From IMG/VR virus record IMGVR_UViG_3300021978_000005, positions 1 to 26,943 of that record: a stretch of 26,943 nt of DNA; one strand, given 5' to 3'. A program made the translations under genes and the position numbers. Of this stretch, positions 730 to 26,943 are shown one piece after another. Source of the stretch: a virus. Taxonomy: Duplodnaviria > Caudoviricetes. The notes under the pieces were generated by a model. That model did not search any database, was not told the DNA's origin, and saw only the letters and a list, made by a program, of their open reading frames with translations. Each line of letters starts with the position of its first letter. Position 1 is the stretch's first letter.

Positions 730-1752
730 TTAGGTATTTAAAATTAAACCAAGCGCGTCATTAATGCTGCCTGATTTCTGTAGTTTTGCCTGTTGGCGTT
801 TACGAACTTTAGTTTTTGAATCTGCAACCTTCTTAGCACCCGCTTTCATTACAGGGTTTCCTCTATTGGTCTTATTGACCGCCTTAGCTTTGCCTGACAT
901 GATTTCACGGTATTTCACAGCATCGTTTAGAACTTGAATAGCTCTATGGTCCATCACTTGCCCGATTTCCTCAGGTGTGTAGCCATAAGCCTCGTGTCCT
1001 ACCCTTACTAGTCTTTCCTTAATCTTACCGGCTTTTTTAGGGTCGGCAAACTCAGGAATCTTCTGTTGTAAAACTTGCATTTCTTGTCTTAGATAGTGCT
1101 TTTTAGCTTGTACACCTGCTGCATCGTTTTGCTGTGAAACAGCCTGTAACTGAGCCATCTGACCATCATAAAACTCCTTATTCTCGTCAAAGGCGAGTTT
1201 TTCTTCCATGTACCCAATAGGGTCACTTTCAAATAACTCTCTTGACGGTGGAACAGGTGCTTGTGCAATGTCTCCCTGTTGAAGCTCTTGATAAAGTTGA
1301 GCCATCTTCTGTCGTTCGTTATTTAAAGACGCATAAACATCTTCAGCTTCTTTACGCTGTTGAGCTGCTTCCTGCATCTTCTTTTGGACGTATTGTTGTC
1401 CGCTATAGCCTTGCTTTAGGTCATCTAAGGTTACTTGCACTTCCTGTCCATCAATCTTAACAGAATAGCTTTCAAGCTCTGTATGACCGGCATCCTCTAC
1501 TTGGTCGTTATCTTCGTCCAACTCTGACGCTTCATAAGTAATCTCTTCGTCAGAATCTTCGTCAGAATCTAAAGCTTCTACTTCTTCGGACTCAGCAGGT
1601 TCTTCTACAGCAGTATCTTCTACTTCTGCGGTTTCCTCTGTTGCCTGAGCTACTTCCTCAGTTGCTTCTACTTTTTCTTCTTCAATCGGAGCAATAATGC
1701 TCTCTACGGCAGCTTCAATACTGCCATCATTTGTAGTTTCAGTCGCTTCCAC
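730..1752 (-). CDS. Capsid scaffolding protein
   Basis: Acidic N-terminus, YSVKIDGQEVQVTLDDLKQGYS motif, coiled coil, basic C-terminus; between portal and capsid; GTG start with AAGGAGG RBS. Confidence 0.85.
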   Translation of the reverse strand: MEATETTNDGSIEAAVESIIAPIEEEKVEATEEVAQATEETAEVEDTAVEEPAESEEVEALDSDEDSDEEITYEASELDEDNDQVEDAGHTELESYSVKIDGQEVQVTLDDLKQGYSGQQYVQKKMQEAAQQRKEAEDVYASLNNERQKMAQLYQELQQGDIAQAPVPPSRELFESDPIGYMEEKLAFDENKEFYDGQMAQLQAVSQQNDAAGVQAKKHYLRQEMQVLQQKIPEFADPKKAGKIKERLVRVGHEAYGYTPEEIGQVMDHRAIQVLNDAVKYREIMSGKAKAVNKTNRGNPVMKAGAKKVADSKTKVRKRQQAKLQKSGSINDALGLILNT

Positions 1753-1766
1753 GGTGCTGACCCTCC

Positions 1767-2000
1767 TTATTTATTACGTTTACGTTTACTAATTTTATCG
1801 TCAGCTATTACGCTTTCCATATAACTACTAATCGCGTCAATCGCACGAACTATGTCATGCGCCCCATCACGTTCATCCGTTGTCGAATGAGCGTTCATGA
1901 AAACAGCAACTTGCCGCTCCACAACTTCAGAAATGACTTCCATAAAGGTATCATCATTCATCAATGTCTTTATCTTAGCAGATTTCTCGGCTACATTCAT
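1767..2000 (-). CDS. Small head-associated protein (77 aa)
   Basis: Coupled to the portal stop codon; small gene in the usual portal-scaffold position. Confidence 0.7.
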   Translation of the reverse strand: MNVAEKSAKIKTLMNDDTFMEVISEVVERQVAVFMNAHSTTDERDGAHDIVRAIDAISSYMESVIADDKISKRKRNK

Positions 2001-4105: not shown

Positions 4106-5745
4106 TATTGACCGCCTTGCGATTGTTGTGTCTGGTAACTATAGTTTAACAGACCCTGTATGCCTTGGTTTGTAACTGGGATAGTATCTCTAGCCTGTTG
4201 TGCTACTCGTCCCATTCTTCCTAAAGTGTTAGCTCCCATGCCTACCACTCTAGGTGATTGTGCTGCTGCGCCTGCTACTGCTGCTACAGGTCCACCTGCC
4301 ATATATCCTGCTGCTGCTGTAGGTAGTTGGAATCCTTTTGCTATACCTCTAGGGGTAATCTCTCTTAAGGCTTGTCCTGCTAATGCAGGTCTAAAGTCCT
4401 TTCCTACTTCTGCTAACTCGTCACCTAGTTTAGCTCTCTGTCCATAGTTAGTATTCACATTATCTCTCATAAGAGATTGTAATTTACGCATAGAAGTATC
4501 AGTCATAGCCTTCTTACCGAGACTTAGTGTTCCTGTAATCTCATGTATCATCTCAGAGGCTTCTGTATATTCTCTCATTGCTCTAGCATAATTAGGTGAT
4601 TGTTTAGAAATCGTGTCTTTGATAGTGTGATAAATCTTCTTACCTGCTGCTTGAGCGGTTCTCTGCTCAGGACCGATATTTTCTATATGAGACCAAATCT
4701 TCTGTTTAAGTTGGTCTAAACCTTCAGGGGTGTGGAAGTTCTTAGCGTCTAGCTTTTTCCATGCGTTAATTTCCCCTCTAAGACTATTAATCAATTCTGC
4801 TGTTTCTTTATTAATAACCTGTCCTTTGTAAGAGCCAAGTTTCTCAACACTGTTTAGGGCGTTGTCAATATCATCAAAGTTTAGTTGCTTCTTATCCTTG
4901 CCCCATAACTTCTTGTTAGATTGATATGCAGCCTGTTTGTTACGGTGCAATATCTCAAGGTTAGTCTTAGCAATATTAAGCGCATCTTCCATAGGAACAG
5001 CACCCTTTATATTGTCCATGAATTGCTTTTGAATCTGTCCGCCTGTCTTTCCTGCTTTAAATGCTTGCTCTAGTGGCGCTACACCTACACCTGTAGTTCC
5101 ACCTAATATGTTTTTAGCTAACTTACCACCGCCTTTAACTACCGCACCTGTACCTTTAGCAGCTAATACTAATGGGTCTACAGCAAATCCTGCGCTCTTA
5201 ATCTTTCCACCTAACTCAGCAACTTTAGCTACGTTTGCAACCTCACCTGCTTTAGCAACAGCCATACCACCACCTGTAATTATAGTAGCTAAATCCGCTA
5301 ATACTGAGGCAGGGTCTGTAGCAATAGCTTCTTTAATATTCGCTTCAGAACCGTATTTATTCGTATAAAACTCACCTACTTTAGAAGCCATCTCTGCGTT
5401 ACCACTTTCATCGCCTAGACCAATCAGCATCCCCTTCTCATTAATAAAGTTGGAAATGTCCTCGCCTAGTAGATTCTGTAATCCACCTGACATTAGCTTA
5501 ATAATTGTCTTACCTGTTTCGATAGGGCTTGTTACAGCGTCATATACATGTCCTGCAAGTTTGGCAGTTGAGCTAGGCAATGAGGCTGCGCCCTCTAGTA
5601 GAGTTCCACCCCAACTTCTTTCTTCTTGCTTGGTGTCGCTATAGGTCTCACTTCTAATCATATCGGCTAATGCATTAGCGTCTTCAGTATTACCTGCAGC
5701 GTCTGCCTGTTCTAAAGCTCCGATTAATTCCTGTCTAGTAGCCAT
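4105..5745 (-). CDS. Putative internal virion/DNA ejection protein
   Basis: 546 aa, Gly/Ala-rich helical, N-terminal ADAAGNTEDANALA motif, hydrophobic Gly-rich C-terminal stretch; follows the tail genes. Confidence 0.65.
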   Translation of the reverse strand: MATRQELIGALEQADAAGNTEDANALADMIRSETYSDTKQEERSWGGTLLEGAASLPSSTAKLAGHVYDAVTSPIETGKTIIKLMSGGLQNLLGEDISNFINEKGMLIGLGDESGNAEMASKVGEFYTNKYGSEANIKEAIATDPASVLADLATIITGGGMAVAKAGEVANVAKVAELGGKIKSAGFAVDPLVLAAKGTGAVVKGGGKLAKNILGGTTGVGVAPLEQAFKAGKTGGQIQKQFMDNIKGAVPMEDALNIAKTNLEILHRNKQAAYQSNKKLWGKDKKQLNFDDIDNALNSVEKLGSYKGQVINKETAELINSLRGEINAWKKLDAKNFHTPEGLDQLKQKIWSHIENIGPEQRTAQAAGKKIYHTIKDTISKQSPNYARAMREYTEASEMIHEITGTLSLGKKAMTDTSMRKLQSLMRDNVNTNYGQRAKLGDELAEVGKDFRPALAGQALREITPRGIAKGFQLPTAAAGYMAGGPVAAVAGAAAQSPRVVGMGANTLGRMGRVAQQARDTIPVTNQGIQGLLNYSYQTQQSQGGQ

Positions 5746-5754
5746 ATTTATTCC

Positions 5755-7050
5755 TTATCTCAGGTTGTATCTTTTCAAAAGTTCGTCTTGTGACTTTGTA
5801 AGGGAAGCCGGGGCAACAATATCTAACGCTTTATGAAAGTCGGCAACATTTGGTATTGCTCCTGCATACCCCGCCAATGTTCCATTTTTCCTAGCGTAAT
5901 CCGCCATGTCAGTCTTTTGTTGCGCTGCAATCTGAATTTGCTGAATTAATACCTTTAATCTCTTGGCATTTTCAGCCCCTGAAAGAGTAGGATTAAAAGC
6001 CCTTTTAATGAGTTTTTCACCCTCTTTTTCGGTAAATTGAGCGCCTAATACAGCTTTTAAGTTTCTCTGTACTACTCCTTCTACTGCTTCTCTTGAAGCG
6101 ACAGCTTCAGGATTAAGGAAGGCCATGGCAAAGTCAGGCATTTGTCCTATAATGGGACCTGTCAGCTTATCCCCAGATTCTAGGGCACTCAGAACATCTT
6201 GTATTTTAGCAAGGTTTCCTACAGTATCTGCTGCACCACCACCTGTCCATTTAAGATAATCATCTGCATAGGCTTTGTCTACAGCTTTATTAAACTCGGT
6301 ATCCTGACCTCCCACATTAACTGTGGTTCCACCACCTCCAATCGCACCGCTTTCTTTCAATGCAGCGAATCTTTCAGGGTCTGATTCAAATAATTCTATG
6401 TTTTTATCTCTAGCTGAAACCTTTTCTTTCTTAAATGCCAGCTTAATAGCATCGCCAGGGTCCATTACCCCTTCTGATACTGCAGTGGCTAAATCTGTTC
6501 TTCCGAGTTTAAGCAAAGAAGCCACCGCTTGAGTGGCTTTCGCTTTAGAGGCTTTGCTCTTTTGAAGACCGTCAATACTCTTCTGTAGAGAGGCAGCTAA
6601 GGCTGCATCAGGGTTAAGTCTTAATGAGTTAAGGCCAATTCCTAACCTAGCCATGTTCTCCTTGTCTCCTAACCAATCTCCTATATCGCTAAATATACTG
6701 CTTTCTTTACCGCCCCTTTTAGCTTCTGGTATGTCCTTTCTTATATTGTCGCTAGGGGTTCCAGTAATAAGCTCACTAATATTTTTTGAGTGGCCACTTT
6801 TAATATAATTTTTTAGCATTTGAGCAGAAATTACTGGCTGTCTTGCTGGGAGCATATCAAAGATTTCTTGAGTTTCAGGGTGCTGTTCTTTAGCGACCTG
6901 ACCTATGCCACGTTGACGGTCTAACGCCATCCCTGCGTCTTGGTACTCTTGGGAGCCAACAACGAACTGTTCTGCAATAGGGTCAGTACTCCCAAATATA
7001 CTCATATTGTCTGTCCCGCCAAAATAATCTAATACACCGTTGTGATTCAT
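5755..7050 (-). CDS. Putative internal virion/ejection protein
   Basis: 431 aa; GGGGTTVNVG linker and LGAQFTEKEG motif; position in the ejection cluster. Confidence 0.6.
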   Translation of the reverse strand: MNHNGVLDYFGGTDNMSIFGSTDPIAEQFVVGSQEYQDAGMALDRQRGIGQVAKEQHPETQEIFDMLPARQPVISAQMLKNYIKSGHSKNISELITGTPSDNIRKDIPEAKRGGKESSIFSDIGDWLGDKENMARLGIGLNSLRLNPDAALAASLQKSIDGLQKSKASKAKATQAVASLLKLGRTDLATAVSEGVMDPGDAIKLAFKKEKVSARDKNIELFESDPERFAALKESGAIGGGGTTVNVGGQDTEFNKAVDKAYADDYLKWTGGGAADTVGNLAKIQDVLSALESGDKLTGPIIGQMPDFAMAFLNPEAVASREAVEGVVQRNLKAVLGAQFTEKEGEKLIKRAFNPTLSGAENAKRLKVLIQQIQIAAQQKTDMADYARKNGTLAGYAGAIPNVADFHKALDIVAPASLTKSQDELLKRYNLR

Positions 7051-7073
7051 AATTTTCTCCTATTTTGGGACTT

Positions 7074-8540
7074 CTATCTTAGTTCAGAATATTTAACAGC
7101 ATAGTACCCGTTATCCATCTTCTCAACCGCATCAGGGAATCTCTTTTTAACTTCCTGAGCAATTACACCTATTGTGTGATTCATGTTTGCGCCAAACTTC
7201 TCAGCGCCTTCTTTCCAATCCCACTTGTAAATGTTAAGCCCTGACTTTAACTCACCCATCTTCTTGATGTTTGTTTTAAGTCTTTCATCGGAGGCCAGAA
7301 ATCCAGCTCCAACAGCTAATAAGTCAATTAACCCAGGGTCGTTAGAAGTTGTTGTTTGTTGAGGAACTGGTGCTGCACCTAGTGCTGCCATTCCATAACC
7401 AAGACCAGTTGCAGGGTGTGCTTGTTGTGCTGCACCCATGCCTGCTGCTGCGTCAATCAATGCCTGGTCCATGACCTGCTGGCTTTGACCATCTGCAGCT
7501 AGATTACCTGTAATAGTTTGACCCATTCCAAATCCTAAGTTAGAAACATTAGCTAATTGTGCTGCTGAGTTTAGATTGTGTTGTGCACCCTGTAGTCCTG
7601 TTCCGACATTAAACTGGTCTGCATTTAGTGTGTTACTAATATCTTGGTTAGCTGCTAATTGAGCGTTCTGATAACCCTGGTGTCTTAAAGTTCCAGTAGT
7701 ATCTGCTACGCTTTGCAACATGTTTCTACCTAGCTCACCTTCTGCAATACCGTGCCTAGAACCACCGAACGCTCCGGCTGCGCCAGCAGAAGCTCCGAGC
7801 TGGTTCTGCATATTAGCGCCTTGACGGTTAATATCTGCAATAGACTGGTCAATAACATTCTGCTGGTAAGGATTCATGTAAGCAGACATATCTGTACCTG
7901 CTAACTGTCCTGCTTGAACCTGGCCTGGCTGGTACGTAGTTCCTGCTAGGGAAGCTTGTCCTGCTTCTGTAATTCCTTGGGCTGCCTGCACATTAATATT
8001 AGGCGCTGGTCCCGTTCCTAAAGGTGTTGAACCAGGTGGGGTTAGTGTTGGAGGTGTTGGAGCAGATTGAACTTGTGGCAATGCTTGTCCGGGCTGAGTC
8101 GGTTGATACTGTCCTGCTGTTGCATTTGCAGGATTATAGTTTGGGGTTATTCCTGCAGGTCTTCCTTCAGGCGTATTTGGATTCATTCCTCTTACGGGTT
8201 GTCCGAGCTGTCCGGGCTGTTGTCTAGGTGTAGGAGTGTCCCACTGTTGTCCTTGCTGTTGCTGTTGCATTAGTTGTGCAGCAATGTCGGTTGGTGGCAT
8301 AGCAGGACCAGCATAACTACGTGGGTTAGGGTCTTGAGCCATAGCTCCAGGGCCTCTTCTTTCTGGAGTTTTTTCCCAGGCCCCTATATCGCCACCTACG
8401 TATCCTCGACCTACGGGTCCTTGAGTCTGTGCCGGAGGCATAGGCATGTTATTACCAGGCTGAGGCATTACACCAAATCTAGCTGGTCCGTTATATTGAG
8501 GTTGTGTTGTTGTTCCACCTGGTCCTGCTGCTTGTGCCAT
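7074..8540 (-). CDS. Q/G/P-rich virion protein with C-terminal peptidase S74-like chaperone domain
   Basis: YMNPYQQNVID and AGAFGGSRHG motifs; C-terminal SDERLKTNIK...IYKWDW...GVIAQEV...PDAV...GYYAVKY. Confidence 0.8.
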   Translation of the reverse strand: MAQAAGPGGTTTQPQYNGPARFGVMPQPGNNMPMPPAQTQGPVGRGYVGGDIGAWEKTPERRGPGAMAQDPNPRSYAGPAMPPTDIAAQLMQQQQQGQQWDTPTPRQQPGQLGQPVRGMNPNTPEGRPAGITPNYNPANATAGQYQPTQPGQALPQVQSAPTPPTLTPPGSTPLGTGPAPNINVQAAQGITEAGQASLAGTTYQPGQVQAGQLAGTDMSAYMNPYQQNVIDQSIADINRQGANMQNQLGASAGAAGAFGGSRHGIAEGELGRNMLQSVADTTGTLRHQGYQNAQLAANQDISNTLNADQFNVGTGLQGAQHNLNSAAQLANVSNLGFGMGQTITGNLAADGQSQQVMDQALIDAAAGMGAAQQAHPATGLGYGMAALGAAPVPQQTTTSNDPGLIDLLAVGAGFLASDERLKTNIKKMGELKSGLNIYKWDWKEGAEKFGANMNHTIGVIAQEVKKRFPDAVEKMDNGYYAVKYSELR

Positions 8541-8542
8541 AA

Positions 8543-8908
8543 TTAATTCCCGTATAAACTGTCGTAAATAGCCATAGCATCTGGCTGTGCTGCTCTGGTT
8601 TCTGCAAGCGCTTGCTCGTACAGACCAATGCCTGAATAACCTCTAGTACCATCAGCATAAGTAGTCGGTTCTGGCATACCTTGAGCTGCTGTCATACCAG
8701 GAGCTTGTAAACCAAAGGCTTCTGCTGCACCGATATTCTGCTGCATTGCTGCTAGTTGTGTATCGTTATAAGCAGCGACATGAGGACCACGCCAAGGCAT
8801 GTATTCCATACTCTGCATATCTTCTGCTCTTTCTATTTGTCTGATTGCTGGGTCTTTAATCCAGTCTGGTATTTCTGATAATTGTGTCGTACTTCCGCCC
8901 CAACTCAT
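8543..8908 (-). CDS. Putative virion protein (121 aa)
   Basis: GGSTTQ..EIPDW..YMPWRGPHVAA; tightly packed between neighbours. Confidence 0.65.
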   Translation of the reverse strand: MSWGGSTTQLSEIPDWIKDPAIRQIERAEDMQSMEYMPWRGPHVAAYNDTQLAAMQQNIGAAEAFGLQAPGMTAAQGMPEPTTYADGTRGYSGIGLYEQALAETRAAQPDAMAIYDSLYGN

Positions 8909-8909
8909 A

Positions 8910-9275
8910 TTAAAACTCCTTCTCTAAAAATATATATTTCTCTGTCCAGCCATCGTTTTTAAATACTTGCTTCCAACCTTTACGACCACTTAGCGTCATT
9001 GAACCACATCCCTCGGCTTTACCCCATTTTACAAGACATTTCTCTATATCTATAATTTCTTCAAGATTACCACCAGCTAAAAAAACATGTAGAACTTTCT
9101 TGTTAGGATACACTACTATCTCTGTCACTAGACAGGCTTTTTTTGCTGGCCAAAATTGCATGTGGCCACTCTTTACGCCCTTTACTATGTCTTCATATTC
9201 ATGCGTATTTCCACCCTTGTCTAAAGGGTCATCTATCCACTTCTTACAGCGTAGCATTTCTTCATCTAGTGTCAT
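8910..9275 (-). CDS. GNAT-fold-like virion assembly protein
   Basis: Likely start MTLDEE at 9275 (ATGA overlap); LVTEIVVYP..KVLHVFLAGG..GC..GRKGW pattern; position after the nozzle gene. Confidence 0.6.
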   Translation of the reverse strand: MTLDEEMLRCKKWIDDPLDKGGNTHEYEDIVKGVKSGHMQFWPAKKACLVTEIVVYPNKKVLHVFLAGGNLEEIIDIEKCLVKWGKAEGCGSMTLSGRKGWKQVFKNDGWTEKYIFLEKEF

Positions 9276-9481
9276 GGGTCTAATTTTACCTTTACCCACG
9301 CCCCGTTCTTAGAAACTACTATTGTTTGATTTGTTCTGTCCCACATCAATACACCATCTTCTGCAGCAGACTCACCTGAAGTCATGTGTTTAAGTTTATT
9401 AGTGTTTGTTGCTATATACGAAACAAGACGCTCGCCCCATGCCTTCCAATCTGTTCCTAAAGGAGAGGGGACCTTAATCAT
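9272..9481 (-). CDS. Small tail-associated protein (69 aa)
   Basis: ATGA overlaps on both sides; DGVLMWDRT...VSKNGAW beta motif. Confidence 0.65.
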   Translation of the reverse strand: MIKVPSPLGTDWKAWGERLVSYIATNTNKLKHMTSGESAAEDGVLMWDRTNQTIVVSKNGAWVKVKLDP

Positions 9482-10962
9482 CTCTTACCGCCAGTTCTTG
9501 CTTCAATTCTCATAACTCCTGAGCGCCAGTTCTCGTTAGCTACCCCTTCTACCTTGAGTCTCATTTGTCTCCCAGTAAATCTAACGCCTGTAGGGTTTGT
9601 AAGAGCAAATGGGCCATGTGTTGACTCTGTATCGTTAGGGTACATTCTTGTTTTAAACGTAACCTTTACTTCTCCCTGTGTTTCTTCGTCTGGAATAAGA
9701 TTTGTTACCTTCATTATCTTGTCGCCATTGCCTAGACTAATAGGTCCAGATTCTGCATAAGGCTTATCTGCTCCATGTGTGTGTCCTGTCTCATGGTTGT
9801 ATAAATCACCACTAGCATCACACCAAATAGGGCTTGAATATACACCCCTGTCCACACCTGCCGTTCTGTCTAATGTTCCTATAGACCAGTGCCCTTCTTT
9901 GTAGTCTAAAGCAACGTATCTATCGTTCTCATTTGAACTAGCTGAAGGATAGAACCACCATACCTCTCCATGTTGTGAATTGTGTACTGCATGTACCTTG
10001 GTAATCTGGTCTCTATTAATATCATCAAATACATAGTCTAATACGTCACATTTAATCTCTTGAGCCACTGAGCCGTTAAAAGTATAGAAACTTTTATGCC
10101 CCATCCAGAAGGCTCCTTCATCTATAGCAGCAATTGCCTTTCTTGAAGAAATACCACAGGCTGTTCCCACCCTTTCAAAACCATACACATAAGGAGGACC
10201 AGAGTAGGTTGCTGTGTGAGCGTCTTGGTCTGTCAGTATAAGGGTTCTTCCTCTTATGTTGACTCCACACATAATAGCGCCCTGTGTCTGTAGTTCCATA
10301 TCACCGGCTTCGTTCTCGAAATCAGGAATCCAAAGCGTATTATCTTCTCTGTCACACCATGCAACCTTTCTAGGGTTTCCGCCTGCTCCTAGAGCAAGTA
10401 AAAACCTTTCTTCCGTAACTATTATTGCTCTATTGTACAAGGGGGCGTTAGCTACTACTGCAGCAGGTATTGCTGAGTCCAGAGACCACTCGTATATCTT
10501 TCCGTCTTTAGATGTGCACCCTACTAAGTATTCACCCCATGTATCTAAAGACCAGGAAGTAGCCTCACCAAACACGCCTGAGTTTGGTCTAGCGTCTCCA
10601 TAATTCTTAATTCCGTAGTAGTTACCACCATATCCTGTGTTCTCTACTGAATCTCCTTCACCTGTAATAAACCCGGTAGGCGTTATGTCTGAAACTATAC
10701 CTGATGGAGTTATAACATATAAATTCGTACTTGTTCCCATTGAAAGATTTACACCTGACCCGTTATCAATCCACGCCATCATGCCTCTACAAACGCCTGA
10801 AATAGAGTCACCGGTTGTTTCTCTAACTGTCCATCCGCCCACAGGACGCATAGAGCCATCATGCCACCTGACTAAGCTACCATCGCGCCATCTGTTAGAA
10901 GATTCAAACTCTGTGCCGTTTCTATGTACACCCGGTGGTAATTGTAGTGGTATTAAACTCAT
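9478..10962 (-). CDS. Tail nozzle / packaged-DNA stabilisation protein (P22 gp10-like)
   Basis: Likely start MSLIPLQLPPG at 10962 (ATGA overlap); Trp-rich propeller-like repeats (WSLDTWGEYLV, EVWWFYPS, WSIGTLDRTA); C-terminal G.R. Confidence 0.8.
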   Translation of the reverse strand: MSLIPLQLPPGVHRNGTEFESSNRWRDGSLVRWHDGSMRPVGGWTVRETTGDSISGVCRGMMAWIDNGSGVNLSMGTSTNLYVITPSGIVSDITPTGFITGEGDSVENTGYGGNYYGIKNYGDARPNSGVFGEATSWSLDTWGEYLVGCTSKDGKIYEWSLDSAIPAAVVANAPLYNRAIIVTEERFLLALGAGGNPRKVAWCDREDNTLWIPDFENEAGDMELQTQGAIMCGVNIRGRTLILTDQDAHTATYSGPPYVYGFERVGTACGISSRKAIAAIDEGAFWMGHKSFYTFNGSVAQEIKCDVLDYVFDDINRDQITKVHAVHNSQHGEVWWFYPSASSNENDRYVALDYKEGHWSIGTLDRTAGVDRGVYSSPIWCDASGDLYNHETGHTHGADKPYAESGPISLGNGDKIMKVTNLIPDEETQGEVKVTFKTRMYPNDTESTHGPFALTNPTGVRFTGRQMRLKVEGVANENWRSGVMRIEARTGGKR

Positions 10963-11861
10963 GCTGCGTCTTCCCAATTAGTTGATGTTTCTGAAATAGT
11001 ATCCCAAGTGTTCGCATCATTAGATACAACTGTCCAATTCTTAGGAGTTGCTGAGGCAGTTGTCCATATTTTATCTGTTTCAGGTATTGTATCCCATGTT
11101 TTAGCTGAAACACCTACTGTTTCCCACTTTTCTCTAGCTATACTGAATATAGGAGAGTTTGATGAAACTAGGGCTTCTACATTTCGTTCCCTTATATAGT
11201 TTAAGGCAGTAGATGTATTAACACTAACTGTGCCTTCGCCACTATATATAAATAAACCTTTCGCAGAGAAAGAAAGATAAGAACTAGATAATGCTGTGCC
11301 TAAGTTAATTTTCTCTGCAGAAGATGTTATTGTTGCCGATACGCTTGTTGAAGCCCCTACTAATCTAATTCTCTCACACGCTGCAGAGGAAGATACAGAG
11401 GTGGCTGATACGATTGTCTGTAAGTCTGCTTCGTCATATACCTGCAATCCATACAAGCCTGTACCGTAGGCAAACTTATCAGAACTCTCTAAGAAGAACT
11501 TCTCAGCATTTGCAATAAATGAGGAGTTTGCACTAATGCTTGCAGAAGCAAACCTAATAGAAACACACTGAGCACTTGTAGAAGAGCTAGAGCTTACTGA
11601 GACACTTCCGTCTTTAACTCTAATAGCACTAGAGCTAACTGTAGAGGAAGGACCAATTGACACAGTAACATCTTTAATTCCTATCGCATTAGCAGCAATA
11701 GAAGAAGTCGCTACTATGGAAGCAGAGGCGCTTAGGAGTTTACTTGAAGATACCGATATTGAAGAAGAGGCTGTAACAGTAACAGCATCAGAAAGCACAA
11801 GATGATTTACACCGTACTTTCTTGAGTTATAACTTCCTTGGTCGTAAGCACCTAATGACAT
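10959..11861 (-). CDS. Ser-rich repetitive tail fibre/needle-like protein
   Basis: 300 aa with 20-aa periodic Ser/Ala repeats and 10-aa Trp repeats; in the tail cluster. Confidence 0.6.
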   Translation of the reverse strand: MSLGAYDQGSYNSRKYGVNHLVLSDAVTVTASSSISVSSSKLLSASASIVATSSIAANAIGIKDVTVSIGPSSTVSSSAIRVKDGSVSVSSSSSTSAQCVSIRFASASISANSSFIANAEKFFLESSDKFAYGTGLYGLQVYDEADLQTIVSATSVSSSAACERIRLVGASTSVSATITSSAEKINLGTALSSSYLSFSAKGLFIYSGEGTVSVNTSTALNYIRERNVEALVSSNSPIFSIAREKWETVGVSAKTWDTIPETDKIWTTASATPKNWTVVSNDANTWDTISETSTNWEDAA

Positions 11862-11873
11862 AGGTTACTCCGT

Positions 11874-12260
11874 TTAGTCTAGTGTAATATCTAAGTCGCC
11901 TGTTGGTACTCTGAACACATCGCCTGTATCAATCGACTTAGCTGAAGCTAGTGTTGCATAAGCCATCAGGTTTCCGCCTGTTACTGCATCGAACACACCA
12001 ACATGAGACACCGTGCCAAAAGAGGCTGTTGCTGTTGCATATTCAACTGAAGCAGTGTTTGATGTTGTATTGCCTGTTGTAGTAAATGCTACCGATTGAC
12101 GAACGTAAGCTGTGCCTGAAGTAGTAACTTCTGTACCGCCACCTGTTTCACCCGGTGCTGCTGTAAATAGAGCCAAGTAGTGTGTAGATGGAGCAGTGTA
12201 AGCTGAACCTGCAAATACATGGTCTAATATTTCTGTTTCTAAAAAGTTTGTAAATGACAT
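11874..12260 (-). CDS. Tail fibre-associated structural protein (128 aa)
   Basis: MSFTNFLETEILDHVF..YLALFTAAP..GGGTEV..YVRQSV..FGTVSHVGVFDAVTGGNL, a common phage structural family. Confidence 0.75.
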   Translation of the reverse strand: MSFTNFLETEILDHVFAGSAYTAPSTHYLALFTAAPGETGGGTEVTTSGTAYVRQSVAFTTTGNTTSNTASVEYATATASFGTVSHVGVFDAVTGGNLMAYATLASAKSIDTGDVFRVPTGDLDITLD

Positions 12261-12889
12261 TATCCTTGCCCTCTTATTTTAAGTTTTAAGCCTGAACCGC
12301 TATATTTAGCTTTATCAGACGCGCTGTTTAATTGCAATACTGCTGCAGAATACATCTGTGCCCATATTGCAATTCTCTCGTCTTCCCCTAGATACGGTGC
12401 TGAGTGTAATAACGCTCCATAGAGGTAAACATCAGGCGCTTCTAGTAAAAGCCAATTATCTTCATTACTTGAACTTAGTGCTGTTGTTTTAGCATAGTAC
12501 AGTAATTCTGTATTAGTTGTAGCAGAAGGTGTTGGGTATAACTGAAACTGACTATCTGCGTGTGTGTAGTGTGTGGGCGTTCCTGTAGCATCTTCATTAG
12601 ACGCTCTCTTATCTGACATTGCTGCTCTTGAGATAAGATTTAAAGGTGAAGTGCCGTTGTCTGTTATGTGAAACCTAATAGTTTCCATCCAATCAGCAGG
12701 AACTTGAGAATATTCATCTCCCGGGCTTTGTTGACCGCTAGAGCGTGTCTCCATCTTCCAATGCCTAATATCTCTATTAATCTGTGACTCAGCAAGAGAA
12801 ATAAAGTTTTCTATAGCGCTAGTTAAATCATCCCTATTTAGGAAGTCTGCTATTGCAGAATTTAATGTTGTATAAGTGTTTATAGCCAT
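12260..12889 (-). CDS. Head-tail adaptor / tail tubular protein A-like
   Basis: TYTTL..AIADFLNRDDLT..FISLAE..LYPTP..NWLL..PDVYLYGAL..APYL. Confidence 0.82.
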   Translation of the reverse strand: MAINTYTTLNSAIADFLNRDDLTSAIENFISLAESQINRDIRHWKMETRSSGQQSPGDEYSQVPADWMETIRFHITDNGTSPLNLISRAAMSDKRASNEDATGTPTHYTHADSQFQLYPTPSATTNTELLYYAKTTALSSSNEDNWLLLEAPDVYLYGALLHSAPYLGEDERIAIWAQMYSAAVLQLNSASDKAKYSGSGLKLKIRGQG

Positions 12890-12898
12890 TTTCTACCT

Positions 12899-14737
12899 TT
12901 ATTTGCCTGGTTTAGTTATGCCTTTAGTTGCCAGATATTGCTCAACTGCTTCTTTAATTGATTCTCTTGGTACTCCGTATGCTGACATTGCCTTCTCTGC
13001 TTCATTATAGGTTTTATTGTAAGACATTTCAGCTTTTTGGGCAGTCGCCTTAGCGTTCATCTCTATCATGGCGGAATTTCTTTGGGAAAAGTTAGGGTTT
13101 GGAATACTTGTTTTTACTTCGCCCTTATCAATCCTAGCTTTTCTAAACGCCTTGTCTGATAAATAGTTTGGAGTCTGGTCAGCTTTAGTTATGTTTCTAT
13201 TAAACGGAGCGCCTTTAGATTTTAGTGCTTCTTGGTATGTTTGGTCTTTTCCTAAAGGGTTCCGAGTTCTTCTTGTCACTAGAGGGTCTAGCTGTACTGT
13301 CGGATAATTGTCTCTTTTAAACGGCTGGTTTGCTAGTTTATCAAGACCAGTCTTGCCAGTTCCTTTGAAATAATTAGATAAGAACTGAGAGACGTATGGT
13401 TTTCCATAAGCGTCCCAGGCTTTACCAAATATTGTTTTAGCTGCATTTACAACACCTGCTGGACCTACTGACATAGCAAGCATTTCAAACTGCTTTTCTT
13501 GTTCAGGAGAAATCATACTTAGACCAACCTTTGCCTCTTCTCCCTTGGTCCAACTACTTACTTCATGGTCAATAGTAGGCTTAGAGGCTATTCCTGTGTA
13601 TGGGTCAGGATTTCCCATCTTGTTAGAACCGCCTGTGTACATAGGCGCTGGTGTGTCTGAAGTCTTACCTTCTCTTCTAAATCTATTTATAAGGGCTGCA
13701 TCTTTATCTGAATATTTAGGTTTATAAGAAGACGGCACTAGAGGGTCTCTGTCATATTCCTCAAATCCCACTGGATGTATTGTGCTCTCATAACCTATAC
13801 TATTTATCATTTCGACAATCTCTTTATCCGACTTACCCCAGAAATCTATAGCGTCTGTCATTGTCCCGTTGTTACGTTTGGCAGTCATTTGACTAGTGTC
13901 AATACCTTTTGTGAAGTCTGTATTAAGAAGTCCAACTAGGTTGCTAGGATAAGCACCAGAAGAAGCTTGTATTTCACTCGGTCCTTTTGCTGCTAACTCT
14001 TCATACGGAGACCATCGTCCAGGACTAAAGCTAGTTCCATCAGGTCCAACAGGGCCTGTGTTCCCATCACTACCAGGGACTAAACCACCCTTTACCAAAG
14101 AATTGTACTTGTCAAGGTTAGCATGGACAAGGTTAGGGTTGTTAGGCAAAGTTCCAGTAGGTGTAGGTTGATTAACAACCTTATTGTCGGCTTCCCAATT
14201 CTTTGCTCCTTCTGTAAAGAAGCTTTTACCACTTTCTAATTTATCATGTTTCCATTGGTCTATTGCTGGCTTGGGGTCTTTTGCACCTATCGCATCAAAA
14301 AACCACTCTCTAGCAGGATTTTTCTTTCTTAGTTCATGATGAAACGCCACATCTAAATTGCCCTGGGATTTAGGAATAGGGTTTGCAATAGGGGTAACTT
14401 GAAGTGGGTTTTGCATACTTTGCTCGTGCGGAGCTAGGTTTTGGGTCTTTGCTCTATTCTGAAATATTGCCTCACCCATAGCGTTTAGATTTTGTCTCGA
14501 CCAACCCTTGGATGCCTGCTGTTGGATAAAAGGTTCGTTATGAAACGCAGGATTAACACCTGTAGGCCATGCAGGACTCCATGCAGGACTTGGAGTATGA
14601 TTCTGATATAGGCCACCTGAATCCGGTGAACTATAACCACTACCTGTATCATTGCCAAACTCATCTGTCTCGGTATAATAGCCGGTAGGATTATGAACGC
14701 TATCTACAACTGAATCTTCATAACTATCGAAAGACAT
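12899..14737 (-). CDS. Hypothetical protein, 612 aa, low-complexity; possibly injected
   Basis: Long ORF with GGAG RBS; acidic N-terminus, basic C-terminus; no family recognised. Confidence 0.6.
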   Translation of the reverse strand: MSFDSYEDSVVDSVHNPTGYYTETDEFGNDTGSGYSSPDSGGLYQNHTPSPAWSPAWPTGVNPAFHNEPFIQQQASKGWSRQNLNAMGEAIFQNRAKTQNLAPHEQSMQNPLQVTPIANPIPKSQGNLDVAFHHELRKKNPAREWFFDAIGAKDPKPAIDQWKHDKLESGKSFFTEGAKNWEADNKVVNQPTPTGTLPNNPNLVHANLDKYNSLVKGGLVPGSDGNTGPVGPDGTSFSPGRWSPYEELAAKGPSEIQASSGAYPSNLVGLLNTDFTKGIDTSQMTAKRNNGTMTDAIDFWGKSDKEIVEMINSIGYESTIHPVGFEEYDRDPLVPSSYKPKYSDKDAALINRFRREGKTSDTPAPMYTGGSNKMGNPDPYTGIASKPTIDHEVSSWTKGEEAKVGLSMISPEQEKQFEMLAMSVGPAGVVNAAKTIFGKAWDAYGKPYVSQFLSNYFKGTGKTGLDKLANQPFKRDNYPTVQLDPLVTRRTRNPLGKDQTYQEALKSKGAPFNRNITKADQTPNYLSDKAFRKARIDKGEVKTSIPNPNFSQRNSAMIEMNAKATAQKAEMSYNKTYNEAEKAMSAYGVPRESIKEAVEQYLATKGITKPGK

Positions 14738-14767
14738 TATTTACTCCATTTAAATTTGGTTTTTATC

Positions 14768-14796
14768 ATTATAACACCTTTAGTCTATTTGACTAA
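14768..14796 (-). promoter_or_regulatory. Putative internal sigma70-type promoter with overlapping inverted repeat
   Basis: Minus strand TG-T-TATAAT (TATAAT at 14768-14773); inverted repeat TTAGTC-N5-GACTAA at 14780-14796 covers the -35 position. Confidence 0.55.
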
Positions 14797-17700
14797 TTCC
14801 TTTAATTCTTCTTCAGTCATCCCAAGAATACCAACTAGAATATCAATATAATCATCATTAACCTTCTCACCCCTGATAGTAATATTATCATCTTCTATAT
14901 CCAACAAACTTGTAAGTGCTTCTGTTATATTGTCAGAAGACTCTAAAACTGAGAGGATGCCTTCTACGTGTTCTGCATCTGCTTCTTCAGTAATAGACAA
15001 AGCGCCTAGTCCTGCTCCTGTTGGCATTGCAACTTTAGAGAAATATAGCTCCGGAAACTTATCAAATAGAGACTTCCTTTCTGCATCTGTGCCATACTTA
15101 TAAATCTTCTCTATTCCTTTGCTCTTTAGTAATTCTTCTGCTTTTTTAGCATACTCAGGAATAATTGCACCTTTAAACTTACTTACATCTACAATATCTG
15201 TTCTTTTTACCTCGAAGTATTCTGTCGGCAAACCATCTGCTATATCTTTTAGTTGATTTGTTATAGTTGTTACTTTTGCAATCGCTTCATCGGGCCAGCC
15301 AGTCCAAGACAAATCAGCGCCTTTTATTGAGTCTTCAATAATATCTTCATATCTAAATGAAGGCATATATCCGTCATCTAGTTTAGCACCTAATCTTTCT
15401 ACATCTTCCATAGCGTCACTATAGTGGGCAGTGAAGTAAGACTTAAAATCCGCCTCACCTGCTAGAGGGTCGAACTGGTACTCGTCTACAATATCGTCTC
15501 TACTTTTCTTAATAGCATCTAAAGTTTTAAACTGAGTAGCAGTTAGGGCTCTTGCTTGTCCTGCGCCTTTCAATCCCTCAGTTCCAGGAAGATGAGCTTT
15601 CTTGTCTTTCATAACCTTGTGGGCAGCTTCTGGAGTCCACTCTACTGTGTCTCTCTTTTTTCCTGTTGGTGTGTATTGCCCTTTAGGGTTAACAATAGCG
15701 TGCCTAACTTCTCCAAGATACTGCTCAGGAGTTATATGTGGCTCAGGAACATAGTGCCCGTCACTCTCAGCTTGTCTTCTCATTAAAGCAAAAGAAGCAA
15801 AGTCTGAAGTTTTGTACCCTAACTCTTCATAAACTGGAGTTACTGCTACCTTAGCCTCTAACCCTCCAGGAGTTAAGTTATCAACTGTGTAATAACCGTA
15901 GAAATCAAGCGTTGATTCAGGGATGCTTTCTTTGAGGGTTTTTTTGTCTGTGTATTCCAGCCTAGAGTCTGGCTGTCTTCCTGAATAAATATCAGTGCTA
16001 TATGCCTTTGCTTTAGCCCCAGGAGTAATCAAGTCTGGATGTGCTAGTAGAGAAACTTCACCGAAGCTGGTCATAGGACTTTTAGCTTTGGAAATAGCCA
16101 TTGAAGGCATTGGCAAGCCTTTTTCTTGTTTAAGTAAAGAACTTTCCGTTAGATTGTGTTGAGCAATTAGAGGGTTTTTAATCCCACCGACATATTCACC
16201 GCCTCTAGTAAGAATGCTTACATCGTCAGGGTGGTATATCATTACAGTGCCATCTGTACCTCTGTTTCCAATTATCCCATACTCACGTAAAGTAGCTTGC
16301 GCCTCTCTCTCACCTATCTCTTTTGCTAAAGTAAAGTAATTCTCTGCGTGAAAATCATCTGGGAAATCAATATTGTATTCTCTACTAATCCCCTTAAAAG
16401 CATTATTAACAAAGTTTGAGTTCTTACCGCCCCAATCAATAGTTATATCTTTGTAATTATCAGCAAACTTCCATCCAGTAACAGTGCTTCCAGGCCAAGC
16501 AGCAGCGTCCTTCTCGTCCAAGAACATATAATGTCCTGTTCCATATTGTCCAGGAACTTGCTGATTCGGGTTAGGTTTGTCGTACACTGAGCTCCCTGAA
16601 CGAAAACCTACAACGTCTTTCTCAATAATAGGAGTAATTCCAAACTTACTAGAGACCTTATTCATTGTAATAGGGTCTGCAGCTTTTAATGCTTGGTGTG
16701 CTACTGCTTTACTAATAAATCCTACACCTGTTAGCATTGCTAGTGCCTCTACAGGTCTCTCAGATAGTGTTTTTGTAAACCCGTCTATTGAGCCGTAATC
16801 TTGAAGTACAGCATTACCTAATGCTGAAGCCATCTCCTTGTCGTTTTGATTGTAATCAAACCCTGTTACGTGTTGAAAAGTTCCTGACAATAAATCAACA
16901 AGAGCCTGTCCTGTTTCTACAGGGCTTGAAATCATGTCTATGACACCACCTACTTCAGTTGCAAGCGAAGGTATAAAGTTCCCTGCTGCTTGACCTGCTG
17001 CAGCTTGGTCAGGGTTAAAGTCCGTAACTCCTTGTATAGATTTCTCTAGGTTGTTGTACCAGTTAGTAGCTGGGTTTTTAAGAGTTCCTTCCACAGCTTT
17101 TCCGGCAGTATCAAGCACTCTAGTATTTAGAAATTCATTCCAACCATCCTTAGTAGGGGCTGCTTTAGTATTAGGGACTTCACCTAATATTCCAGGTAAA
17201 TTTAAGTCTGGTGCTATATCTCTAGCAAAAGAGTTTTTATCATTAACAAATGAGTTTTCATTCTTAGTATCTACATAATGCTGCTGTTTAGCATCAAAGT
17301 TATAATTGCCGAAGGCATCTGTTGATATAGGGTTTCCGAAATCATCTGTGTCTGCCCAGTTTTCAGATTGCCATTTAGACGCTTCTTGTAATCCATCGAG
17401 AGTATATTCTCCATCGAACCAACCCCAAGGGGAGGATGACTTAGCGTTATTATCCCTGCCCTTCGTCATGTCATTCCAACCACTGTATTGTAGCCTTGCA
17501 TCAGCTATATCAATAGTTTTTAATTCGTCTACTGTGTCTAAATATGTCTGGCGGTCTGCCCTCATTTCGTCTACATTAGAAAGCATTTGCATCTTAGAAG
17601 CGAAAGAAGGGTTACTACGAATATCGTCAATTACACCTTGCTCTTCTTGGGTTGCATTGTCTAACAAGCCTGGATAACTGGATTGCATCCAAGAGTCTTG

Positions 17701-17847
17701 GAATGATGGAGCGTTCATACTGTCGCCAGCACCCCATGTAAAGTCTCCTACAGAACTTGCACCGTGTACATTTCTATAATCCGCTGCATCCATGTAATCG
17801 GAATCAAACCAATCATCTTCAGACCAGCTACTAATATCGTCAGTCAC
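14785..17847 (-). CDS. Large polyvalent-type protein with ADP-ribosyltransferase-like modules
   Basis: 1020 aa. aa 411-551 resemble the ART domain of polyvalent proteins (YGTGHY, IDW, LREYGIIG, VMIYHPDDVSIL). aa 558-936 carry HNL..GLPMPSMAI..FGEVSL..YFEVK, recalled from large phage polyvalent proteins. Confidence 0.6.
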   Translation of the reverse strand: MTDDISSWSEDDWFDSDYMDAADYRNVHGASSVGDFTWGAGDSMNAPSFQDSWMQSSYPGLLDNATQEEQGVIDDIRSNPSFASKMQMLSNVDEMRADRQTYLDTVDELKTIDIADARLQYSGWNDMTKGRDNNAKSSSPWGWFDGEYTLDGLQEASKWQSENWADTDDFGNPISTDAFGNYNFDAKQQHYVDTKNENSFVNDKNSFARDIAPDLNLPGILGEVPNTKAAPTKDGWNEFLNTRVLDTAGKAVEGTLKNPATNWYNNLEKSIQGVTDFNPDQAAAGQAAGNFIPSLATEVGGVIDMISSPVETGQALVDLLSGTFQHVTGFDYNQNDKEMASALGNAVLQDYGSIDGFTKTLSERPVEALAMLTGVGFISKAVAHQALKAADPITMNKVSSKFGITPIIEKDVVGFRSGSSVYDKPNPNQQVPGQYGTGHYMFLDEKDAAAWPGSTVTGWKFADNYKDITIDWGGKNSNFVNNAFKGISREYNIDFPDDFHAENYFTLAKEIGEREAQATLREYGIIGNRGTDGTVMIYHPDDVSILTRGGEYVGGIKNPLIAQHNLTESSLLKQEKGLPMPSMAISKAKSPMTSFGEVSLLAHPDLITPGAKAKAYSTDIYSGRQPDSRLEYTDKKTLKESIPESTLDFYGYYTVDNLTPGGLEAKVAVTPVYEELGYKTSDFASFALMRRQAESDGHYVPEPHITPEQYLGEVRHAIVNPKGQYTPTGKKRDTVEWTPEAAHKVMKDKKAHLPGTEGLKGAGQARALTATQFKTLDAIKKSRDDIVDEYQFDPLAGEADFKSYFTAHYSDAMEDVERLGAKLDDGYMPSFRYEDIIEDSIKGADLSWTGWPDEAIAKVTTITNQLKDIADGLPTEYFEVKRTDIVDVSKFKGAIIPEYAKKAEELLKSKGIEKIYKYGTDAERKSLFDKFPELYFSKVAMPTGAGLGALSITEEADAEHVEGILSVLESSDNITEALTSLLDIEDDNITIRGEKVNDDYIDILVGILGMTEEELKELVK

Positions 17848-21785: not shown

Positions 21786-21958
21786 TTGATTGTATTGCTA
21801 TGACCGCCACCACACGGTTTGAACATAGGAGTAGACACTGTTTGTCTTGTATCTTTACTAGTACATTCAGGACATTTACCGCTCTTAGCATGGTCAGTCA
21901 TTCTATTATCCTTTGTGTATTTGTGTTCACAGGTATTACACATGTAATCATAAATCAT
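21782..21958 (-). CDS. FmdB-like zinc-ribbon protein (58 aa)
   Basis: Hand-translated MIYDYMCNTCEHKY...CPECTSKDTRQTVSTPMF; two CxxC pairs; ATGA overlaps at both ends. Confidence 0.8.
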   Translation of the reverse strand: MIYDYMCNTCEHKYTKDNRMTDHAKSGKCPECTSKDTRQTVSTPMFKPCGGGHSNTIK

Positions 21959-22134
21959 TTCTTACTTTTAAAATAAGTAGAGAGAGCGTAAGTAATTAAA
22001 TGAATATCAGGCCTTCCTTTTTTTATCCTATTACTCAAAGCTACATAAGTTATGCCTAGAATAGCTGAGACCTCTTTTTGAGTAAGCCCCATCTTTCTAA
22101 ACTCCTTTTTTATATCATCATATTTTATAAGCAT
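21955..22134 (-). CDS. Cro/XRE-like HTH regulator (59 aa)
   Basis: MGLTQKEVSAILGITYVALSNRIK HTH; first gene of the leftward operon; ATG at 22134 preferred. Confidence 0.75.
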   Translation of the reverse strand: MLIKYDDIKKEFRKMGLTQKEVSAILGITYVALSNRIKKGRPDIHLITYALSTYFKSKK

Positions 22135-22137
22135 AGC

Positions 22138-22189
22138 ACGTATTATATCAAGAAAACTATACATAAACACAACAATTCTTTATATTAAT
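22138..22189 (-). promoter_or_regulatory. Leftward early promoter (extended -10)
   Basis: Minus strand TG-A-TATAAT (TATAAT at 22142-22147), 7 nt before the HTH ATG; shares blocks with the rightward promoter. Confidence 0.7.
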
Positions 22190-22705
22190 CAAGATTATCA
22201 CTCTAACTTACGCACTATCGTTTGTTTGCTCGGTGCTTTGCACCCAAGCCGTTCTCTAGGTAGAGCTCGTCACTTCGTTCCTCTGGGGTATAAATACCCT
22301 TTTTTAGAGCAAGAGCAAGTCAGTGTTATATTCGGTTAAGTTGTTTAGTTGGGGAAATCGGGGTAAAGAAATCCCTAGGCTAAATTAATAACCTAGAGAG
22401 ATTTACATTCGTATAAAGCGCCTAAGCAGTCTTCATCGGATGGTCACACTATTACGTTTGTGACTCAGAGTTCATCGCTACCTTGAACAGGCACTCACCC
22501 ACTATAACTCTGCGCTAGATTTAAAAACACTGTACAGGTATTACCCTAGTAAGTTCGTAACGAGAGGAAATGCTTTGTCCTACATTTAACCTAACGACTT
22601 AATCTAACATCAATCAATAGCATACCCATTTGATGAATCTCTTTTTTTTATTCAGGTGTGAGTGAAACCAATTGGTCAGACATATCACCTGTCGGGGCGG
22701 TGAAA

Positions 22706-22733
22706 TTGCCAAATGGAAAAGATATGATATAAT
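22706..22733 (+). promoter_or_regulatory. Promoter of small antisense RNA
   Basis: TTGCCA (22706-22711), 16-nt spacer ending TG-A, TATAAT (22728-22733). Confidence 0.75.
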
Positions 22734-22738
22734 CTTTA

Positions 22739-22799
22739 ACAGGTGGCGCAATCACCTAATTCGACCCTCGTCAGATTCTAAGTCTTTCGGGGGTTTTTT
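22739..22799 (+). ncRNA. Putative ~60-nt two-hairpin small RNA
   Basis: Bounded by a near-consensus promoter and an intrinsic terminator; hairpin AGGTG/CACCT, then ACCCTCG/CGGGGGT plus T-tract; no ORF. Confidence 0.65.
22764..22799 (+). terminator. Rho-independent terminator
   Basis: Stem ACCCTCG (22764-22770)/CGGGGGT (22788-22794), inner AGATT/AGTCT, T-tract 22794-22799. Confidence 0.75.
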
Positions 22800-22812
22800 C
22801 GTTCTGAAGCAG

Positions 22813-22843
22813 ATTATAAACTAAGTAAATTAATAGATGTAAA
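22813..22843 (-). promoter_or_regulatory. Putative promoter for the long non-coding transcript
   Basis: Minus strand TATAAT (22813-22818) and TTTACA (22838-22843); the 19-nt spacer is long and the context AT-rich. Confidence 0.45.
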
Positions 22844-22859
22844 TTAAATTAGTGAATTA

Positions 22860-22906
22860 AATATAAAGAATTGTTTGCATAACATAAAGTTTTCTGTATA
22901 ATACGT
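22860..22906 (+). promoter_or_regulatory. Rightward early promoter
   Basis: TTGCAT (22875-22880), 16 nt, TATAAT (22897-22902); AT-rich upstream; precedes the early operon. Confidence 0.72.
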
Positions 22907-22957
22907 AGTAACTTGATTGAGACATTAAGTTCTTTAAAACAAAAAACGGAGATACAA

Positions 22958-26482: not shown

Positions 26483-26943
26483 CTATTTTTCCTTGTAAAT
26501 GAACTTGTCTAAATAATCTTTCTGAGATGATAACATAGTGCGGTCAAATTTTCGGATTTCTTCCATTTGACGTGAAGCATTAATTTCATCTACATATTTG
26601 TATTTATGCCTGTTTCTAGGCTCAAAGTTAGTACCGCTATATGTTGGTAAAGACCACGGCTCTCTATCTTCAAAACCATCCTTCTCAGGGAAGTATCCGA
26701 AACCTATTAGTTTGGAAATCCAACAACTAGGGATAAACATAACATCTCTAATAGGAGGCAACAAGGCCTTCTTGCAGGTATCTAACCAAGCCTTCATACG
26801 CTCAGTGATATGTGTATTCTTACCACGAGACTTCCAAAAGGCTGAGTCGTCTCTACTAGACATGTAATAGTTAGTAGAAATAAAGTCTAGTGTGTCCTCT
26901 AAAGAGGTACTTGTTATGTCGTTGTAAATCTCTTTAGTCATGT
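26483..26943 (-). CDS. Tryptophan halogenase-like protein, C-terminal part (runs off window end)
   Basis: YN..E.TLDFISTNYYMSSRDDSAFW..F..SCW..LIG matches the C-terminal pattern of PrnA-like flavin halogenases. Confidence 0.75.
   Translation of the reverse strand, partial: MTKEIYNDITSTSLEDTLDFISTNYYMSSRDDSAFWKSRGKNTHITERMKAWLDTCKKALLPPIRDVMFIPSCWISKLIGFGYFPEKDGFEDREPWSLPTYSGTNFEPRNRHKYKYVDEINASRQMEEIRKFDRTMLSSQKDYLDKFIYKEK

Follow-up and report, generated by a model that had tools for sequence, protein, structure and literature searches.

The gap between the divergent early arms of a marine tailed phage is a conserved non-coding element in three modules (antisense control, core and 3' DNA cassette), and the element is a real, new RNA family. 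In this phage and in dozens of its relatives we read it as an RNA-based origin of replication under predicted antisense control, a reading to which we assign a probability of about 0.62. The replication role with its antisense control follows from the exchange of the element with protein initiators in one genomic slot, from the absence of replication genes in a complete relative, from a control module like that of the MRB plasmids, and from a 3' cassette that can be exchanged. On these sequence comparisons a role in replication seems highly probable, and, if that role is granted, priming by the long RNA would be the probable mechanism in nearly the same degree.

The window, that is, the whole stretch of DNA analysed, is a 26,943-nt fragment (IMGVR_UViG_3300021978_000005), and coordinates are window positions. 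Its portal, terminase and scaffold genes mark it as a fragment of a tailed phage; a major capsid gene was not found in these 26.9 kb. On the minus strand the arm leading off the gap carries HTH, FmdB-like, VRR-NUC, YbcO-like, NinB and terminase genes, and on the plus strand the other arm carries small ORFs, ERF and SSB. The gene order is lambdoid, with a repressor, an initiator and a helicase loader expected around the point of divergence. At that point the window has a gap (22171-22912) without a gene-like ORF, reaching from the HTH gene to the first left-arm gene (plus strand, ATG 22958), in which the longest reading frames have 45-50 aa and no iterons were found. Each arm has its own promoter (Table 1), so the ~620 nt in between are not simply promoter DNA. 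A 41-nt inverted repeat (76%; 22146-22186 and 22860-22900) overlaps both divergent arm promoters, and its arms are candidate operators of the neighbouring HTH protein. At its far end the window breaks off in a gene fragment (26483-26941, minus strand) with a weak PHROG match to tryptophan halogenase (E 4e-6). The SSB relatives that carry names are Gammaproteobacteria, including Ca. Thioglobus, and, as judged from the SSB relatives only, a SUP05-type host is likely.

Table 1. Features in and around the gap, in window coordinates
Feature	Position	Strand	Remarks
Small HTH gene, anchors the slot	21955-22170	-	likely start ATG 22134; in RNA-type and initiator-type relatives alike
Own promoter of HTH/late arm, with one arm of the 41-nt inverted repeat	22142-22186	-	extended -10 at 22142-50
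3' DNA cassette	22190-22324	-	GCTCTT repeats; A6 run 22300-05; small hairpin 22285-300; PAS-like motif 22270-80; conserved CAAACGATAGTGCG 22211-24
Structured core, ~375 nt	22325-22699	-	5' stem 22691-86/22658-53; long-range helices; variable insertable domain; pseudoknot; further hairpins
Covarying hairpin with U-rich tail, terminator-like	22372-22399	-	base competes with a long-range helix for 22401-22397 (read from the alignment)
5' control module of the long RNA, able to pair with the antisense RNA	22700-22806	-	also heads the type-B body; L086 has none
Sigma-70-type promoter of the predicted antisense RNA, TTGCCA-16-TATAAT, extended TG	22706-22733	+	11/12 consensus match
Predicted 61-nt antisense RNA (RNA I-like)	22739-22799	+	hairpin 1 22741-57; hairpin 2 and U-tract terminator 22763-99
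-10 box (TATAAT), predicted promoter of the long RNA (RNA II-like)	22813-22818	-	+1 predicted near 22806
Promoter of ERF/SSB arm (TTTGCA-17-TATAAT), with the other inverted-repeat arm	22860-22902	+	

Protein-anchored and motif searches gave 72 loci at 100 bits or more (45 distinct), and 71 sequences were reduced to 31 representatives under 95% identity, which are 60-87% identical to the window. The core matches 70-95% of window bases, compared with 56-70% for the adjacent HTH gene (14 loci; aligner background ~57%). Across the 31-row alignment the 49 predicted pairs hold in 98% of 1513 cells and 26 of the 49 show double changes, figures that are inflated by the derivation of the structure from the same alignment; none of 500 shuffles reaches any of these measures, and slid controls reach 33-45%. 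One helix (22512-06/22472-66) has a Watson-Crick run of at least 5 in 28 of 31 rows against 1 of 448 cross-class pairings, and it is crossed by a second covarying helix (22636-32/22499-95), which makes a pseudoknot. One-sided G-U changes in the core favour the minus strand as the RNA strand, and folding of the whole gap by itself gives a modest signal (z -2.0 for the minus strand, -1.1 for the plus strand). A hidden or frameshifted protein gene is ruled out, as 198 of the 227 indels have lengths not divisible by three and no ORF survives in all rows; the best candidate for a conserved peptide is an 11-codon frame present in 21 of 31 rows and broken in the others.

The Rfam search that the first-pass annotation had proposed returned no known RNA family over the element in the window (E<=1), and across the loci only sub-threshold terminator-like matches on element hairpins appeared (E<=5, 10 loci). 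The order of the core helices (22636-22444, minus strand) resembles the P3/P7/P8/P9 pseudoknot of a group I intron, with a 6-nt joiner; this identity was rejected, as there is no Rfam match and no conserved catalytic-core sequence, and the P7-equivalent helix varies freely. A hammerhead-like reading of one core segment was ruled out as well, because the core bases are not conserved. The variable insertable domain of the core is missing in L071, and this locus, from a distant relative, has a candidate type II hammerhead ribozyme at 1542-1605 on the plus strand (35.3 bits, gathering threshold 37, E 0.0007), ~600 nt from the element.

Upstream of the core, the predicted antisense RNA folds into two hairpins with z = -4.0 (0 of 200 shuffles), and its first hairpin combines a near-invariant stem with a variable loop (29 of 32 rows, 19 different loops). 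Its promoter keeps the -10 box in all 32 rows and the extended TG in 13. The minus-strand TATAAT assigned to the long RNA is retained in 28 of 32 aligned rows; in the window it lacks a good -35, so that this promoter is absent from the consensus-scan list, and L013 and L015 add a TTGACA-16-TATAAT. The first-pass annotation, made from the letters of the window, had described the ORF-free gap, the minus-strand TATAAT, the chain of stems and a promoter- and terminator-bounded antisense RNA of ~60 nt, and each of these descriptions is borne out, the last as a predicted RNA; the structural conservation that its reading called for is strong across the 31 rows. The same control module also heads an otherwise unrelated, conserved body of ~320 nt (type B), which occupies this slot in inverted orientation (L001 2090-2560, minus strand; L016, L019, L107-L113), and it is missing from L086. 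The type B fold comes from 7 sequences only, with double changes in 11 of 105 pairs. In L001, L016 and L019 a different conserved segment of ~165 nt replaces the cassette.

The slot itself was followed through the HTH gene, which was found in 112 loci, 102 of them with at least 700 nt upstream, forming 39 clusters. Type A, the form in the window, occupies the slot in 32 clusters, type B in 4, and an initiator and/or a downstream partner gene in 3, with no cluster carrying both the RNA element and an initiator and none carrying neither; the census is biased by the element-based searches, and the clusters reached by protein queries only divide into 10 of type A, 3 of type B and 3 with initiators. 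The three initiator clusters represent two lineages, and L008/L009 and L157/L158 are near-duplicate clusters. There is likewise no overlap between 109 element loci and 28 loci with initiator, loader or helicase homologs. The slot initiators match PHROG initiator families, with a DUF6291/O-like gene in L010 and a different initiator in L157, and each is followed by a gene of ~158 aa without a family match, between the same left arm and HTH gene; more distant relatives have a repressor, Cro, an initiator and DnaB at the slot. On the HTH tree, built from a short protein with 27 rows and 7 of 24 branches well supported, the three slot types interleave, with type B needing 3 changes and the initiator type 2, and this implies repeated exchange.

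The complete relative, G001, is 31,658 bp long, has a terminal repeat of 149 bp and carries an element 95% identical to that of the window. At the level of family detection (36 ORFs or ORF parts scanned with Pfam and 32 with PHROG, in scans that did detect control initiators and DnaB) it shows no match to an initiator, helicase, primase, polymerase, integrase, CI-type repressor or ParA, and in lacking a Rep protein at this level it agrees with ColE1-type replicons. The partition, resolvase and repressor genes by which a phage-plasmid would be recognised were also not found among its ORFs, though a multicopy state that does without such genes is conceivable. A 93% complete type-B record, G009, likewise has no replication gene among 40 scanned of 49 listed ORFs; its PHROG match to "DNA primase" falls on a methyltransferase, the best matches being methyltransferase families. 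This one complete genome and one type-B record form the complete-genome base. Six-frame searches with two initiator families matched only initiator-type records. The first-pass annotation had seen no replication protein in either early arm; for the phage as a whole a 26.9-kb fragment is insufficient to judge this, and the absence is upheld by G001, among whose ORFs the initiator that might have been encoded elsewhere was not found. As a sign of an origin, a GC-skew switch proved uninformative, since the skew tracks gene orientation in both the window and G001. The virion modules of L099/L100 (G001; portal/connector families) differ from those at 730-17847 of the window despite the 95%-identical element, and on this comparison the early region and the structural block appear to recombine freely.

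The 3' cassette is predicted to be a helicase-loading or lagging-strand signal. The PAS-like motif that had been noted there is degenerate in the window itself (GAACGAAGTGA; 2 matches in the window vs 0.23 expected), and it takes a sharper form in homologs. The 12-mer GAGCGWAGCGAG occurs in 25 of 184 loci, namely 23 phage loci (redundant), ColE1 and pVCG1.1, and is absent from the other 159; in the phage loci it is found once per locus, and at the cassette position in the loci checked. The ColE1 copy (1332-43, RNA II strand) is downstream of an A5 run and ~140 nt past the RNA II 3' region, in a segment that we take to be pas, and the copy in pVCG1.1 is on the strand opposite the presumed long RNA. 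L072 and L076 have, in place of the cassette, a hairpin of ~115 nt, with different inner stems, that carries three DnaA-box-like 9-mers, each one mismatch from TTATCCACA (background 0.35 per kb); under a looser DnaA consensus L072 is not enriched over the locus (5 found vs 8.2 expected). In 26 of the 29 type-A representatives with a full cassette, the cassette holds no DnaA-like box beyond one stray match, which indicates that DnaA is not the general initiator. One type-B lineage keeps a window-like cassette on the HTH-ward strand behind the inverted RNA; there the cassette cannot be the downstream site of that primer, and the primer model leaves it unexplained unless it serves later rolling-circle synthesis. 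In L060 (5930-6230) ~150 nt are inserted between core and cassette, so the spacing is not fixed.

These features suggest how an RNA-primed origin might work. Host sigma-70 RNA polymerase would make a minus-strand RNA of ~450-520 nt from ~22806, and the folded core would keep its 3' end on the template, where a host DNA polymerase could extend it as a primer at some point from the hairpin (22372) to the A6 run (22300). The displaced strand would then expose the 3' cassette, on which PriA-type host proteins, helped by the phage SSB, would load DnaB for the lagging strand; in the hairpin-variant cassettes DnaA would load DnaB instead. Binding of the 61-nt antisense RNA to the 5' module through its variable loop would block priming and set both the copy number and the specificity between related phages.

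In its layout the element seems closest to the two-stem-loop MRB class and not to ColE1, with sequence homology to neither. In the MRB description, the origin has ~500 bp, with a 68-nt two-stem RNA I that carries a specificity loop and a 110-bp core shared with an otherwise different origin, and the RNA II mechanism is given there as uncharacterised (PMC3035462); a second source treats MRB as the two-stem-loop branch of the ColE1-type origins and reports two-stem-loop origins from Vibrionales and Pasteurellales (PMC8683028). Like the MRB plasmids of Vibrionaceae (pB1067 / pES213), the element is an ORF-free unit of ~500 bp with a predicted antisense RNA of ~60-70 nt (61 nt, 19 loop variants) that has two stem-loops, a short linker and a terminator, would overlap the long RNA at its 5' end and would have its specificity in the first loop, and in both a control module of ~110 bp is common to otherwise unrelated bodies. 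Unlike MRB, it is in a tailed phage at the place of an initiator gene and has a different core fold, and the ~110-bp conserved MRB sequence of RNA I and promoter is not found in it. There is no sequence or model match to pES213, pSDH-2, pSIO1 or pVCG1.1, with pB1067 and pAK1 outside this comparison, and a short-motif likeness to pB1005 seen by eye is unsupported by the profile. Profiles and an RNA-I covariance model gave no significant match to ColE1, phiX174, two Pasteurella and four Vibrionaceae plasmids, and blastn against phages and plasmids, with the gap, the antisense module, type B and a distant homolog as queries, brought no meaningful match.

The comparison with ColE1 yields a long RNA with a 5' antisense partner, both of them predicted in the element, and, downstream on the same strand, an A-run and the GAGCGTAGCGAG motif in both systems, and ColE1 itself also has a DnaA-box-like 9-mer downstream. 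There is no homology, however, and the element has two RNA I hairpins and not the three of the Enterobacterales form; no Rop homolog was seen. G-rich tracts in ColE1-type RNA serve persistent hybrid formation, and ColE1 RNA II has G6 runs at 928 and 1175, whereas on the RNA strand of the element G-runs do not exceed 3 and the part near the 3' end is rich in C. The missing G-tracts, the C-rich 3' region, the terminator-like hairpin ~70 nt before the A6 run and the orientation exception point against a literal ColE1 mechanism. The first-pass annotation had proposed an RNA-primed, ColE1-like replicon while seeing only an architectural likeness without an extended sequence match; the profile searches agree with the latter, and of the former the replication role with antisense control is well supported by comparison and the specific ColE1 mechanism is not; dependence on RNase H, Pol I and PriA and a plasmid-prophage state would be conjecture.

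Other known systems share single aspects of the element. Mycobacteriophages with non-RepA parABS are reported to have RNA-based prophage origins whose deletion leaves lytic growth normal (PMC7157519); these too are non-coding RNA origins in tailed phages that alternate with protein initiators among relatives, but they sit beside parABS and act in the prophage only, whereas here no partition or other replication gene was found and the element would be the sole origin. DnaA loads DnaB on DnaA-box hairpins (PMC6127211), and this source and PMC5778457 support the A-site and pas concepts; similar to the ABC-primosome A-site and the primosome assembly sites of the phiX174/ColE1 type, the hairpin cassettes would lie on the displaced strand downstream of the predicted priming point, and they differ in that their boxes are one mismatch from the consensus and are candidate binding sites; the cassette profile has no phiX174 match. 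The Rfam motifs ARRPOF, GEBRO and PAGEV of plasmid replication and the phage RNAs GOLLD and ROOL (PMC5737381) are, like the element, extended structured RNAs associated with phages or with replication regions that lack Rep. A further candidate parallel (PMC12753305) was dismissed as a protein-dependent replicon. Full-text literature searches, which covered few subscription papers and, of the RNA catalogues, Rfam only, listed no paper on this element and none on a tailed phage that relies for replication on an RNA origin alone.

Much of this evidence would also fit an origin whose RNA is not a primer, in which transcription or a folded RNA or single-stranded DNA opens the duplex or recruits DnaA or PriA, and host primase primes both strands. 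Such an origin draws on the same slot exchange and absence of replication genes, and it is favoured by the DnaA-box-like hairpin variants, by the lack of a G-rich hybrid-forming tract, by the terminator-like hairpin before the cassette and by the one type-B lineage in which the cassette is kept independently of RNA orientation. We nevertheless consider it unlikely, given that primer control in ColE1 and MRB plasmids is marked by just such an antisense overlap at the very 5' end, and given that DnaA, by the count of cassettes without boxes, cannot be the general initiator. The long RNA could instead be an antisense-controlled leader or antiterminator for the HTH-to-terminase arm, with replication dependent on recombination through ERF/Sak, SSB and host restart proteins. 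Type A does point into that arm, an alternative pairing exists for the terminator-like hairpin, and every relative inspected, where the sequence is long enough, has genes for an annealing protein and SSB. This reading appears quite improbable, however: the HTH arm has its own promoter and the inverted type-B bodies point away from it, initiator-type relatives carry Sak/ERF and SSB yet lack the RNA, and a regulator is not expected to exclude initiators.

An RNA that stands at the divergence point by chance, whether a large non-coding RNA of unrelated function (cf. GOLLD/ROOL) or a type I toxin-antitoxin system, would account for a large, pseudoknotted and possibly abundant transcript and, as in type I systems, for an antisense partner, but the long RNA has no conserved small hydrophobic toxin ORF or other conserved peptide and no Rfam match, and the missing replication genes and the mutual exclusivity would go unexplained; we regard this as decidedly improbable. 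The chance that a small initiator protein escaped recognition elsewhere in the genome, with the element only its binding origin, is very slight. Several small G001 ORFs without a family match would leave room for one, but the unknown left-arm genes of the window are absent from G001, initiator-type relatives also have the HTH and 55-aa genes, and the gap is free of iterons.

Metatranscriptome contigs touch on expression. In four runs of one study, contigs cover 22328-22799 in several variants, mostly 90-99% alike, and three of them end at 22786-22799, near the predicted start of the long RNA; those runs were found with this stretch, the contigs are strandless and the flanking genes also have pieces, so that they give a weak hint of expression of the element. 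Two runs of a second study had no RNA contigs on this stretch, which does not prove that the RNA is absent there. Contig ends at 22733 were discarded as transcript ends, the same ends being present in a non-RNA run. A scan of GTDB gave 4 matches, of which 1 is a true homolog (L098) and 3 have no profile match, and no host-integrated copy. L098, from a bin labelled Parvibaculum, is a phage-like contig whose copy of the element is a distant one; it may be misbinned or may reflect a wider host range.

An RNA-primed origin under antisense control, the reading we prefer, can be extended to a broader scenario that we offer tentatively and hold to be possible and no stronger. A clade of marine tailed phages would have replaced both a lambda-like O/P module and the CI switch by RNA; a pseudoknotted primer RNA would drive all replication on host enzymes, the antisense loop would define immunity or incompatibility groups and allow copy-controlled persistence as a plasmid, and control, core and helicase-loading cassette would be exchanged separately. 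If the RNA-based origin is real, a tailed dsDNA phage can do without any replication protein, the very short list of RNA-based replicons gains at least two new RNA bodies, and small uncultured phage genomes that seem to have no replication module would be explained, with the initiator slot as the place to look for the origin. The natural swaps between RNA and initiator, between PAS-like and DnaA-like cassettes, and between elements with and without the antisense module make the mechanism directly testable, and the element could provide a compact origin for marine Gammaproteobacteria that resist genetic work, among them the SUP05 group.
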